A stretch of DNA of 2,270 nt from Escherichia coli (GTDB lineage Bacteria > Pseudomonadota > Gammaproteobacteria > Enterobacterales > Enterobacteriaceae): assembly GCF_003334255.1 (NCBI RefSeq), contig NZ_QOWU01000138.1; one strand, given 5' to 3'. This document shows positions 1-2,270 of the stretch, piece by piece (positions within the stretch are counted from its first letter, which is position 1; every line of letters begins with the position of its first letter). Under the pieces are notes generated by a model, which was not told where the DNA came from, searched no databases, and saw nothing but the letters and a program-made list of their open reading frames with translations. The position numbers and the translations under genes are program-made.

Positions 1-25
1 GTAAGCGTAAAGCCAATGCCGTCTG
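1..25. repeat. Left terminal inverted repeat (IRL) of the IS66-family element; inner boundary approximate
   Basis: The window starts with 5'-GTAAGCGTAAAGCCAATGCC..., the terminal motif typical of IS66-family inverted repeats. The inner extent cannot be fixed because the right inverted repeat is not in the window for comparison. Confidence 0.55.
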
Positions 26-34
26 TAACACCTG

Positions 35-72
35 CTCCTTGCAGACTAAATTAGAGCTCCTTCTAAATTAGA
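35..72 (+). promoter_or_regulatory. Subterminal imperfect tandem repeat (CTCCTT[GCAGA]CTAAATTAGA / CTCCTTCTAAATTAGA) overlapping a candidate tnpA promoter; possible transposase-binding or promoter region
   Basis: Seen in sequence: CTCCTT at 35-40 and 57-62; CTAAATTAGA at 46-55 and 63-72. A TTGCAG -35-like hexamer lies at 39-44, with AT-rich -10 candidates (TCTAAA 62-67, TAAATT 65-70) 17-20 bp downstream. Functional role is inferred only. Confidence 0.25.
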
Positions 73-73
73 C

Positions 74-77
74 GGAG
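74..77 (+). promoter_or_regulatory. Shine-Dalgarno sequence (GGAG) for tnpA
   Basis: GGAG at 74-77 lies 8 nt upstream of the ATG at 86. Confidence 0.5.
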
Positions 78-85
78 TTCTATTG

Positions 86-520
86 ATGGATAAACCTACA
101 GACTGGCGCTCCGGAACCCGCCGGATATTTTCTAATGAATTTAAACTTCATATGGTTGAACTGGCTTCGAAACCAAATGCCAATGTTGCACAACTGGCCC
201 GGGAACATGGCGTTGATAACAACCTGATTTTTAAATGGCTACGCCTCTGGCAAAGAGAAGGACGTATTTCTCGTAGAATGCCTCCAACTATTGTAGGCCC
301 TACAGTATCACAATCTTTTCCGGCCTCTCCGACTCTGGTTCCAGTGGAACTTATCGACACCCCGCGCTGTGCTACAGATGCTCCTGCTCCGGAGGCATTA
401 TCAGTTGCTTGTGCAGCTTCCTGCCATGTGGAATTCCATTACGGTAAAATGATGCTGGAAAATCCTTCACCAGAGCTGCTCACGGTGTTGATCCGTGAGC
501 TGACCGGGAGGGGACGATGA
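86..520 (+). CDS. tnpA: IS66-family TnpA (orf1): small helix-turn-helix transposase accessory protein
   Basis: The six-frame track gives ORF 83..520, but 83 is a TTG. The ATG at 86 has GGAG 8 nt upstream and is the preferred start, giving 144 aa. The N-terminal region (RRIFSNEFKLHMVELASKPNANVAQLAREHGVDNNLIFKWLRLWQREG) resembles the HTH 'transposase_8'-type domain of IS66 orf1 proteins. The stop TGA overlaps the tnpB start. Confidence 0.85.
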   Translation: MDKPTDWRSGTRRIFSNEFKLHMVELASKPNANVAQLAREHGVDNNLIFKWLRLWQREGRISRRMPPTIVGPTVSQSFPASPTLVPVELIDTPRCATDAPAPEALSVACAASCHVEFHYGKMMLENPSPELLTVLIRELTGRGR

Positions 521-867
521 TTTCACTCCCATCAGGTACCCGTATCTGGCTCGTTGCCGGCGTTACTGATATGCGTAAATCCTTCAACGGTCTGGGGGAG
601 CAGATACAGCATGTGCTGGATGATAACCCCTTCTCCGGTCACCTGTTTATCTTCCGTGGCCGACGGGGAGACATGATTAAAATCCTGTGGGCTGATGCTG
701 ATGGTCTGTGCCTGTTCACCAAACGCCTTGAGGAAGGTCAGTTTATCTGGCCTGCGGTGCGTGACGGTAAGATATCCATTACCCGCTCGCAACTGGCAAT
801 GCTCCTCGATAAGCTGGACTGGCGTCAGCCAAAAACATCCCGCCTTAACGCACTGACAATGTTGTAA
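517..867 (+). CDS. tnpB: IS66-family TnpB (IS66 Orf2-like protein), 116 aa; function in transposition not defined
   Basis: ATG at 517 overlaps the tnpA stop (ATGA at 517-520) and is preceded by GGGAGGGG at about 503-510. Size and sequence (IWLVAGVTDMRKSFNGLGEQIQ...GHLFIFRGRRGDMIKILWADADGLCLFTKRLE) are typical of IS66 Orf2 proteins. Stop TAA at 865-867. Confidence 0.88.
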   Translation: MISLPSGTRIWLVAGVTDMRKSFNGLGEQIQHVLDDNPFSGHLFIFRGRRGDMIKILWADADGLCLFTKRLEEGQFIWPAVRDGKISITRSQLAMLLDKLDWRQPKTSRLNALTML

Positions 868-897: not shown

Positions 898-2270
898 ATG
901 AGTCAGAAATACCTCATTCGCATCGCTGAGCTGGAAAGGCTGCTCTCTGAGCAGGCTGAAGCCCTCCGTCAGAAAGACCAGCAACTGAGTCTGGTTGAAG
1001 AGACGGAGGCCTTCCTGCGCTCTGCACTGGCACGTGCCGAAGAAAAGATCGAAGAAGATGAACGGGAAATAGAGCATCTGCGGGCTCAGATAGAAAAACT
1101 GCGCCGGATGCTGTTCGGAACCCGTTCTGAAAAACTGCGTCGTGAGGTTGAACAGGCTGAAGCCCTGCTGAAACAACGCGAGCAGGAAAGCGATCGTTAC
1201 AGTGGGCGTGAGGATGACCCGCTGGTTCCCCGCCAGTTGCGACAGTCGCGCCATCGTCGTCCGTTACCGGCACATCTCCCCCGTGAAATATACCGCCTGG
1301 AGCCTGAAGAAAGCTGTTGCCCGGAGTGTGGCGGTGAGCTGGATTATCTGGGGGAAGTCAGCGCAGAACAACTGGAACTGGTGAGCAGCGCCCTGAAAGG
1401 GATCCGCACAGAACGGGTAAAAAAAGCCTGTACAAAATGTGACTGCATCGTTGAAGCACCGGCACCATCCCGTCCGATAGAGCGTGGTATCGCGGGCCCG
1501 GGGTTACTTGCCCGCGTGTTAACGGGAAAATACTGCGAACACCTGCCACTGTATCGTCAGAGTGAAATCTTTGCCCGCCAGGGTGTCGAACTGAGCCGTG
1601 CCTTACTCTCCAACTGGGTTGATGCGTGCTGCCAGTTAATGACTCCGCTGAATGATGCCCTGTACAGTTATGTGATGAACACCCGCAAGGTTCACACTGA
1701 TGACACACCAGTAAAAGTACTGGCACCGGGCAGGAAGAAGGCGAAAACAGGATATATCTGGACGTATGTCCGGGATGACCGAAATGCCGATTCGCCAGAA
1801 CCTCCGGCGGTCTGGTTCGCCTACTCACCGGACCATCAGGGTAAACATCCGGAGCAACACCTTCGTCCCTTCCGGGGTATCCTGCAGGCAGATGCGTTCG
1901 CAGGTTACGATCGGCTGTTCAGTGCCGAACGTGAAGGCGGCGCGTTGACGGAAGCAGGATGCTGGGCTCATGCGCGGCGCAAAATCCACGATGTATATAT
2001 CAGTACCAAAAGCGCGACGGCGGAAGAAGCACTGAAACTAATCGGCGAACTGTACGCCATTGAGCACGAAATACGCGGGTTGCCGGTGTCTGAACGCCTG
2101 GCGGTCAGGCAAATGCAGAGTAAACCGCTACTGACTTCCCTGTATAAGCTGATGCAGGAGAAAGAACACACGTTATCGAAAAAATGCCGTCTGAGAGATG
2201 CGTTCCGGTATATCAGGAAGCACTGGGTTGCGTTGTGCAACTTCTGTGATGACGGTCTGGCGGAGGCGGA
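898..2270 (+). CDS. tnpC: IS66-family TnpC DDE transposase, 3'-truncated by the window edge (457 codons present, no stop)
   Basis: Open frame from ATG 898 to the window end with no stop, which is why it is absent from the ORF track. Translation begins MSQKYLIRIAELERLLSEQAEALRQKDQQL... (heptad, Leu/Glu-rich coiled coil). It has Cys clusters CCPEC (1315-1329) and CTKCDC (1429-1446), candidate catalytic residues in HTDDTP (1699-1704), QADAFAGYD (1891-1911) and EAGCWAHARRK (1951-1980), matching the IS66 transposase DDE signature. The antisense ORFs across this span are shadows. Confidence 0.92.
   Translation, partial: MSQKYLIRIAELERLLSEQAEALRQKDQQLSLVEETEAFLRSALARAEEKIEEDEREIEHLRAQIEKLRRMLFGTRSEKLRREVEQAEALLKQREQESDRYSGREDDPLVPRQLRQSRHRRPLPAHLPREIYRLEPEESCCPECGGELDYLGEVSAEQLELVSSALKGIRTERVKKACTKCDCIVEAPAPSRPIERGIAGPGLLARVLTGKYCEHLPLYRQSEIFARQGVELSRALLSNWVDACCQLMTPLNDALYSYVMNTRKVHTDDTPVKVLAPGRKKAKTGYIWTYVRDDRNADSPEPPAVWFAYSPDHQGKHPEQHLRPFRGILQADAFAGYDRLFSAEREGGALTEAGCWAHARRKIHDVYISTKSATAEEALKLIGELYAIEHEIRGLPVSERLAVRQMQSKPLLTSLYKLMQEKEHTLSKKCRLRDAFRYIRKHWVALCNFCDDGLAEA

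Follow-up and report, generated by a model that had tools for sequence, protein, structure and literature searches.

Pairing over the start of the message is a familiar route by which mobile elements restrain their own transposition genes, and we describe here a candidate for such control in the IS66 family. In IS10 and IS50, transcripts that enter from outside pair over the translation start region, whereas the native transcript starts inside the pairing and escapes. Fold-back inhibition of IS10 was reportedly described by Davis, Simons and Kleckner in 1985, and read-through protection of IS50 by Schulz and Reznikoff in 1991. The IS10 and IS50 fold-backs are longer in range than the compact local hairpin that we found in the ISEc43 window, and an arrangement like theirs would here come from an invariant TAnnnT at positions 47 to 52.

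In the 5′ untranslated region (5′ UTR) of IS200 tnpA, as is predicted for ISEc43, the leader is folded by an inverted repeat that lies immediately within the left end, and the fold hides the Shine-Dalgarno sequence; sequestration of the transposase Shine-Dalgarno sequence by the IS200 leader stem-loop has been shown experimentally (Ellis, Trussler and Haniford 2015, PMC4513863), and the same DNA can also yield a structured antisense RNA, art200 (PMC4513863). IS200 differs in that it belongs to another family, has a single gene encoding an HUH transposase, and carries a separate terminator hairpin upstream. Its stem is also longer (~70 nt) and invariably forms part of the transcript as mapped. 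A repressive 5′ UTR structure has likewise been shown experimentally for ISPpu9 (PMC8450116). There, as in ISEc43, a strong leader structure lies over the transposase ribosome-binding site, but the ISPpu9 structure is opened by an antisense RNA, which switches translation on, and the small RNAs Asr9 and Ssr9 are involved (PMC8450116). Finally, RNA-OUT of IS10, as presented in PMC4513863, is a stable stem-loop antisense RNA that covers the start of the transposase message. The structure that we describe below appears to be a hairpin of the kind seen in the leaders of IS200, IS10, IS50, and ISPpu9.

The window, that is, the whole stretch of 2,270 bp that was analyzed, is the left part of an ISEc43-like insertion sequence of the IS66 family. 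It is 100% identical to a plasmid of E. coli G6/7 and 99.9% identical to many further E. coli records, and the transposase in the matched records carries the RefSeq name "IS66-like element ISEc43 family." A complete copy of 2,541 bp (L001, positions 1501 to 4041) ends in GTAAGCG...CGCTTAC tips and is bordered on both sides by CGAAAGGC, a target duplication of 8 bp; the L046 copy is flanked by the target-site duplication TATTGTTC. The terminal inverted repeats start with GTAAGCG, and the left tip, GTAAGCGTAAA, matches the right tip, TTGACGCTTAC, over 11 nt at 91%. The tnpA ATG at position 86 is the start annotated by RefSeq, and its product matches the NCBIfam IS66 TnpA models with an E value of 1e-18, yet falls under their curated cutoffs. 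The tnpA stop and tnpB start codons share the sequence ATGA, and the full-length tnpC is the RefSeq coding sequence at L001 2398 to 4011. With its ends, its target duplication, and its three-gene order tnpA-tnpB-tnpC, this is an ordinary member of the IS66 family. The features of the window are collected in Table 1.

Table 1. Features of the left end and the genes of the ISEc43-like element (window coordinates)
Feature	Position	Strand	Basis or remark
Left terminal inverted repeat (IRL), GTAAGCGTAAAGCCAATGCCGTCTGTAAC	1..29	+	Tip match to right end; inner limit approximate
Direct-repeat copy 1: CTCCTT (35-40), GCAGA (41-45), CTAAATTAGA (46-55)	35..55	+	Sequence reading and repeat search
Candidate weak -10 hexamer TAAATT (TAnnnT)	47..52	+	T47, A48, and T52 invariant
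Predicted leader hairpin, UAGAGCUCC.UCUA-AAU-UAGA.GGAGUUCUA	52..82	+	Folding; pair conservation across relatives
Direct-repeat copy 2, CTCCTTCTAAATTAGA: CTCCTT (57-62), CTAAATTAGA (63-72)	57..72	+	Sequence reading and repeat search
Shine-Dalgarno sequence GGAG of tnpA, in hairpin 3′ arm	74..77	+	8 nt before ATG at 86
tnpA, 144 aa, IS66 accessory protein	86..520	+	RefSeq CDS WP_001309734.1
tnpB, IS66 accessory protein	517..867	+	NCBIfam NF033819, 119 bits (cutoff 50)
tnpC, IS66 DDE transposase, truncated by window end	898..2270	+	NCBIfam NF033517, 448 bits (cutoff 180)

The original prediction had placed two tandem repeat copies and a GGAG between the left inverted repeat and tnpA and had proposed that CTCC of the repeat and GGAG could form a short hairpin that would occlude the tnpA ribosome-binding site. 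On rereading the sequence, we found both copies and the GGAG at exactly the positions given for them. The complementarity also proved to be real and its position conserved, but the stem, with CTCC and GGAG at its core, is larger than had been proposed, spanning positions 52 to 82. In this 31-base structure, positions 52 to 60 pair with 74 to 82 (9 bp, including a G56·U78 wobble) and 62 to 65 pair with 69 to 72 (4 bp), with a 1×1 mismatch of U61 and C73 between the two helices and a 3-nt loop at 66 to 68. Its predicted folding energy is −15.7 kcal/mol (z = −4.21), and none of 200 shuffled sequences was as stable. The short fold of positions 35 to 77, with CTCC (35 to 38) paired to GGAG, was no better than shuffled sequences (z = −0.6). 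A two-hairpin alternative (51 to 66 and 69 to 82, with GGAG in a loop) would consist of short A-U-rich stems that, by an estimate made without folding, are far weaker, and we do not put it forward as a switch. An Rfam 15 scan of the whole window at E values up to 10 gave no relevant family, the sole hit being at chance level (positions 1309 to 1379, E = 5.5).

The 3′ arm of the hairpin contains the GGAG and stops 3 nt short of the ATG, and the predicted probability that the GGAG is unpaired is ~0 in transcripts containing the 5′ arm. The stem, its statistics, its placement over the ribosome-binding site, and its conservation, to which we now turn, were all computed directly. Left ends were taken from diverged E. 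coli copies, from 35 genomic loci encoding TnpA relatives, from 80 metagenomic contigs retrieved with a pattern that left the hairpin unconstrained, and from eight distant plasmid-borne relatives. They include an ISEc43 clade (clade A), whose members share 49 to 68% TnpA identity, and an ISEc8/22-like clade (clade B). The 85-nt left ends of the two clades align base for base, with identical hairpin center and register. On the plus strand, 88.5% of pair cells were paired across 26 distinct sequences, compared with 26 to 43% when the partners were slid. Four pairs are altered on both sides (for example, C57-G77 to G-C and A65-U69 to G-C), and none of 500 shuffles reached the observed score. This covariation comes mostly from a single split between the two clades, so that few independent events are represented, and within the ISEc43 clade the stem is too conserved in sequence for covariation to rise above shuffles.

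Changes within the ISEc43 clade mostly preserve pairing on the sense strand. The G56·U78 wobble is replaced by G-C in several relatives and by A-U in L063, and U·G or G·U pairs occur in the stems of L006, L008, and L011. The clade A exceptions to this retention of sense-strand wobble pairs are L013, L014, L119, and L120, in which the GGAG is damaged as well. Among the relatives as a whole, the loop varies in sequence and in length, from 3 nt to about 13 nt (L027), and the arms remain complementary.

Hairpins of unrelated sequence were found at the same place in more distant lineages, namely, those of L135, of L137 (with L009 and L044), and of the Burkholderia element L139, together with a weaker one in L138 (z = −1.5). 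In each of these lineages, a purine run with GGA lies in the 3′ arm, the end of which is 1 to 5 nt upstream of the tnpA start, with z values from −1.5 to −5.5. The arms are GGAUAGUGGACACC...GGUGGACGCUAUCC in L135, GUCCAUC...GAUGGAC in the L137/L009/L044 type, and GUUCCCACUA...UAGUGGGAAC in L139. Folding of L136 gave no clean stem over the Shine-Dalgarno sequence. An equivalent tnpA leader hairpin is thus present in most of the distant IS66 lineages examined.

Since the 3′ arm contains the Shine-Dalgarno sequence, the simplest function for the hairpin is translational repression of tnpA. We consider it reasonably probable, and the best of the readings discussed here, that a stem-loop in the mRNA leader limits tnpA translation, possibly mainly on read-through transcripts. 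The tnpA-tnpB-tnpC mRNA would carry this stem-loop, encoded by positions 52 to 82, in its 5′ leader. In any transcript that includes the full stem, the ribosome-binding site would be base paired and tnpA translation would be held down, and coupled translation of tnpB would probably be reduced as well. The element would have a weak promoter of its own, with TAAATT (47 to 52) as the −10 element and a start near 58 to 60, within the 5′ arm. Its native transcripts would lack the lower stem and would be easier to translate, whereas read-through transcripts from outside would include the stem in its entirety and would be blocked. Action as RNA on the sense strand, the position of the transcription start, and the size of the effect are the elements of this mechanism that we infer.

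The putative −10 element is best described as compatible with a weak promoter. None of the 27 aligned left ends, which represent two clades, departs from T47, A48, or T52, and T47 and A48 lie outside the stem. Read by eye, the best combination pairs it with a candidate −35 element, GTAACA (25 to 30), across a 16-bp spacer, for a total of 8 of 12 consensus matches. A consensus promoter scan of both strands of the window gave no site in the leader at a threshold of 9/12, a simple scan that weak promoters could escape, and promoter and terminator scans of both strands of three relatives (L011, L016, and L017) likewise gave nothing at the leader. A second TAAATT (64 to 69), in the loop, is unlikely to be a promoter element, because its start would fall inside the Shine-Dalgarno sequence. 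The predicted cost of opening positions 72 to 90 falls from 12 to 14 kcal/mol to ~6 kcal/mol once the 5′ end lies at position 58 or beyond. In such 5′-truncated RNA, the GGAG is predicted to pair with CUCC at 109 to 112, which makes it less than certain that the ribosome site is freed in native transcripts. Our literature searches returned nothing specific on IS66 transcription start sites, the key IS66 papers lying outside the literature searched.

The left ends of the ISEc8/22-like clade raise a different reading, in which the palindrome mainly serves an antisense RNA. Such an RNA would start within tnpA and run leftwards, and its stable stem-loop would base pair with the tnpA leader and prevent translation, as IS10 RNA-OUT and IS200 art200 do. 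In the ISEc8/22-like elements, the sense-strand mismatches are without exception C·A and are thus G·U on the antisense strand, where the stem is perfect over 16 to 17 bp, with G·U pairs exactly where the plus strand has C·A. Folding energies there were −21 to −25 kcal/mol for the antisense strand versus −9 to −14 kcal/mol for the sense strand. In L017, for example (positions 1141 to 1188, about 35 nt before the tnpA ATG; L015 to L043 are ISEc8/22-like), the antisense strand reached −21.1 kcal/mol (z = −5.75) and the sense strand −9.2 kcal/mol (z = −1.6). Across the 26 distinct sequences, combined pairing was also higher on the minus strand, at 95.3% of pair cells against 88.5% (slid controls over both strands, 26 to 45%), and the observed score was reached by no shuffle on either strand. 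These features hint at an antisense RNA or some other role of the bottom strand in the ISEc8/22-like clade, and IS200 is a case in which a leader stem-loop and an antisense RNA can coexist over shared DNA (PMC4513863).

In the window itself, however, folding favors the sense strand (−15.7 kcal/mol, versus −11.4 kcal/mol for the antisense strand), and G56·U78 turns into an A·C mismatch on the minus strand. A simple consensus scan of the minus strand of positions 1 to 300 of the window and of L011, L016, and L017 detected no promoter-like or terminator-like site, the minus-strand stem is not followed by a U-rich terminator, and no Rfam family matched. We know of no small RNA for IS66. The minus-strand bias of the ISEc8/22-like clade does resemble IS10 RNA-OUT, which differs from the present case in that no antisense promoter or terminator was detected here and in that the sense strand of the window folds better. 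Overall, we regard a mainly antisense function as doubtful; an antisense RNA could, though, operate alongside the sense hairpin. A two-strand module may be imagined in which the sense strand hides the tnpA ribosome-binding site, the antisense strand provides the stem of an RNA-OUT-like RNA, and the clades have shifted the balance between them, ISEc43 towards the sense strand and the ISEc8/22-like elements towards a perfect, G·U-tolerant stem on the antisense strand only. We hold this to be improbable, but, if true, it would provide the first defined mechanism of regulation in IS66, which is among the commonest insertion sequence families in plasmids and pathogenicity islands of the Enterobacteriaceae.

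The tandem repeat on which attention had originally centered was considered separately. The two exact 10-mers (46 to 55 and 63 to 72) lie 17 nt apart in a repeat search, with a single G (position 56) between the copies and a single C (position 73) after copy 2. An exact 10-mer direct repeat within 40 nt occurred in 0.24% of dinucleotide shuffles of bases 1 to 120, and at least one such repeat occurred in 7.3% of dinucleotide shuffles of the whole window. The 10-mer repeat is therefore modestly above chance, with the second shared hexamer, CTCCTT, left uncounted. Copy 2 supplies most of the hairpin, contributing the loop, some of the 5′ arm, and the upper portion of the 3′ arm, and the 10-mer also reads as a near-palindrome (TCTAA-A-TTAGA). 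The pentamer TTAGA occurs both at the base of the 5′ arm and in the upper 3′ arm, each time with TCTA(A) as its pairing partner, and the repeat can therefore be seen as a side effect of this symmetry. The 5-mers in between (GCTCC and CGGAG) are complementary, not identical, and the upstream five bases, CTAAA, add a lineage-specific resemblance between the copies. These relationships suggest that the period-17 repeat is mainly a by-product of the nested symmetry of the stem. In the intermediate element of L034 (about 1150 to 1200), the hairpin arms, TTAGACGCCCACCTAAA and TTAGACGGGCACCTAAC, form a direct repeat of 17-nt period with 14 of 16 matches, while the central GCCC and GGGC are complementary; there, tandem repeats and hairpin are therefore one and the same sequence symmetry.

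The original prediction had further suggested that the two copies might act as subterminal protein-binding repeats, to be checked by conservation of the unit and its spacing among relatives and by an inverse copy near the right end. This reading found no support, and the checks named for it largely went against it. The two 10-mers agree at 8 of 10 positions in the L011 type, at 7 in the L134 type, and at 5 in the L072, L036, and L006 types, so that in relatives with 50 to 70% TnpA identity the agreement is just 5 to 8 of 10. The CTCC of copy 1 is lost even in ISEc43 variants that are 96 to 98% identical, where C35 is replaced by A. A search of the whole 2,541-bp element for CTAAATTAGA, in which up to 2 mismatches were allowed, gave matches only within positions 45 to 72 and none at the right end. 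As judged from these alignments, it is the hairpin, not the tandem repeat, that is the conserved unit, and we see no basis for annotating the repeat as a binding-site array. A left-end relic without tnpA (L007, positions 395 to 480), with a diverged inverted repeat, retains copy 2 and the GGAG intact and has 7 bp (TCTGAGT) inserted between the copies; the insertion was considered as evidence on spacing and given little weight, coming as it does from a relic without tnpA.

The same observations bear on whether the CTAAATTAGA units, or the palindrome as double-stranded DNA, might bind TnpA, TnpC, or a host factor, for transpososome assembly or for autorepression of the tnpA promoter. The near-palindromic units lie 17 bp apart directly inside the IRL, TnpA shows weak similarity to the N termini of helix-turn-helix transposases, and TTAGA (51 to 55), AGACGGA (70 to 76), and TCTA (79 to 82) are strongly conserved in sequence across the two clades. 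However, the putative binding unit recurs nowhere else in the element at up to 2 mismatches, and it decays in relatives while the complementarity of the stem persists. Stems of 13 to 17 contiguous pairs around loops of 3 to ~13 nt are ill suited to fixed half-site spacing, and deviations from exact symmetry nearly always belong to the G·U or C·A type, as expected of a folded strand and not of a protein operator. Variable loops between arms that stay complementary, together with these G·U and C·A departures, therefore argue for a folded single strand rather than an operator of fixed spacing. No match to the IHF consensus WATCAANNNNTTR was present in positions 1 to 200. We judge protein binding to be quite unlikely as the function of these sequences.

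It is very improbable that the hairpin is an intrinsic terminator or insulator against outside transcription, like the hairpin at positions 12 to 34 of the IS200 left end: the stem core (57 to 77) is followed by UUCUAUUG, with 5 U in 8, and the perfect stem of the relic L008 by CTTTATTG, but the terminator scan did not call the 52-82 hairpin, the U-rich tail is missing both from L011 and from all of the ISEc8/22-like clade, in which the stem runs directly up to the ATG, and a terminator here would also truncate tnpA transcripts of the element itself, should these start upstream of position 52.

Translational control by the leader stem, the reading that we prefer, would concern a widespread element. 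Relatives of the window were present in 3,312 of 5,426 complete E. coli genomes, and TnpA relatives were present in at least 5,000 plasmid records. Searchable literature, outside which the key IS66 papers lie, held nothing on control of the IS66 three-gene operon or on IS66 stem-loops or antisense RNA. A hairpin over the tnpA ribosome site offers a concrete, testable control point for transposition frequency, and it could also account for tolerance of insertion of the element into transcribed regions.

Other pairings were noted around the leader of ISEc43. In the inner IRL, GCCGTCTGTA (18 to 27) is complementary to TACAGAC-t-GGC in tnpA codons 4 to 8 (97 to 107). This long-range pairing encloses the hairpin in RNA read in from outside (z = −4.08 for positions 20 to 110) and recalls IS10 fold-back inhibition; its conservation does not extend to L011 or the ISEc8/22-like clade. 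In RNAs starting at position 59 or later, CGGAGU (73 to 78) is predicted to pair with GCUCCG (108 to 113) in tnpA codons 8 to 9, the CUCC of which is not kept in relatives. A terminator-like TCCGGAACCCGCCGGA followed by TATTTTCTAA lies on the plus strand at 110 to 125, with a tail to 135, inside tnpA about 25 nt past the start, and seemingly occurs only in ISEc43 and near variants.

Two observations concern individual relatives. L081 has a 10-bp deletion of positions 77 to 86, or of an equivalent 10 bp (the repeat makes the placement ambiguous), such that the TG of the start codon adjoins GGA. IS66 elements of enterobacterial type were found in L020, L021, L025, L027, and L029, contigs labeled as Macrococcus brunensis, Clostridia, Rikenellaceae, Segatella copri, and Bacillota metagenome-assembled genomes; contamination or misbinning is a likelier source of these labels than a genuine host range.

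At the right end, beyond the window, L001 4009 to 4040 contains a perfect 10-bp inverted repeat, TAAGCGTCAA and TTGACGCTTA separated by 12 nt, which extends over the stop codon of tnpC and gives the right end a second, inward-facing copy of the terminal sequence. Right ends were recovered for ISEc43 itself and for one uncertain relative (L119) only, and the inverted repeat is not kept in the latter. The right tip also carries an outward-facing −35-like TTGACG, 5 nt from the end of the element. We considered a junction promoter on a circular intermediate, but on reading the sequence found no spacing that would put a −10 element in the IRL. Lastly, an 11-nt direct repeat, GAAAAACTGCG, at positions 1093 to 1103 and 1129 to 1139 of the window (36 nt spacing) falls in the N-terminal part of tnpC and probably reflects a repeated Glu-Lys-Leu-Arg peptide motif.
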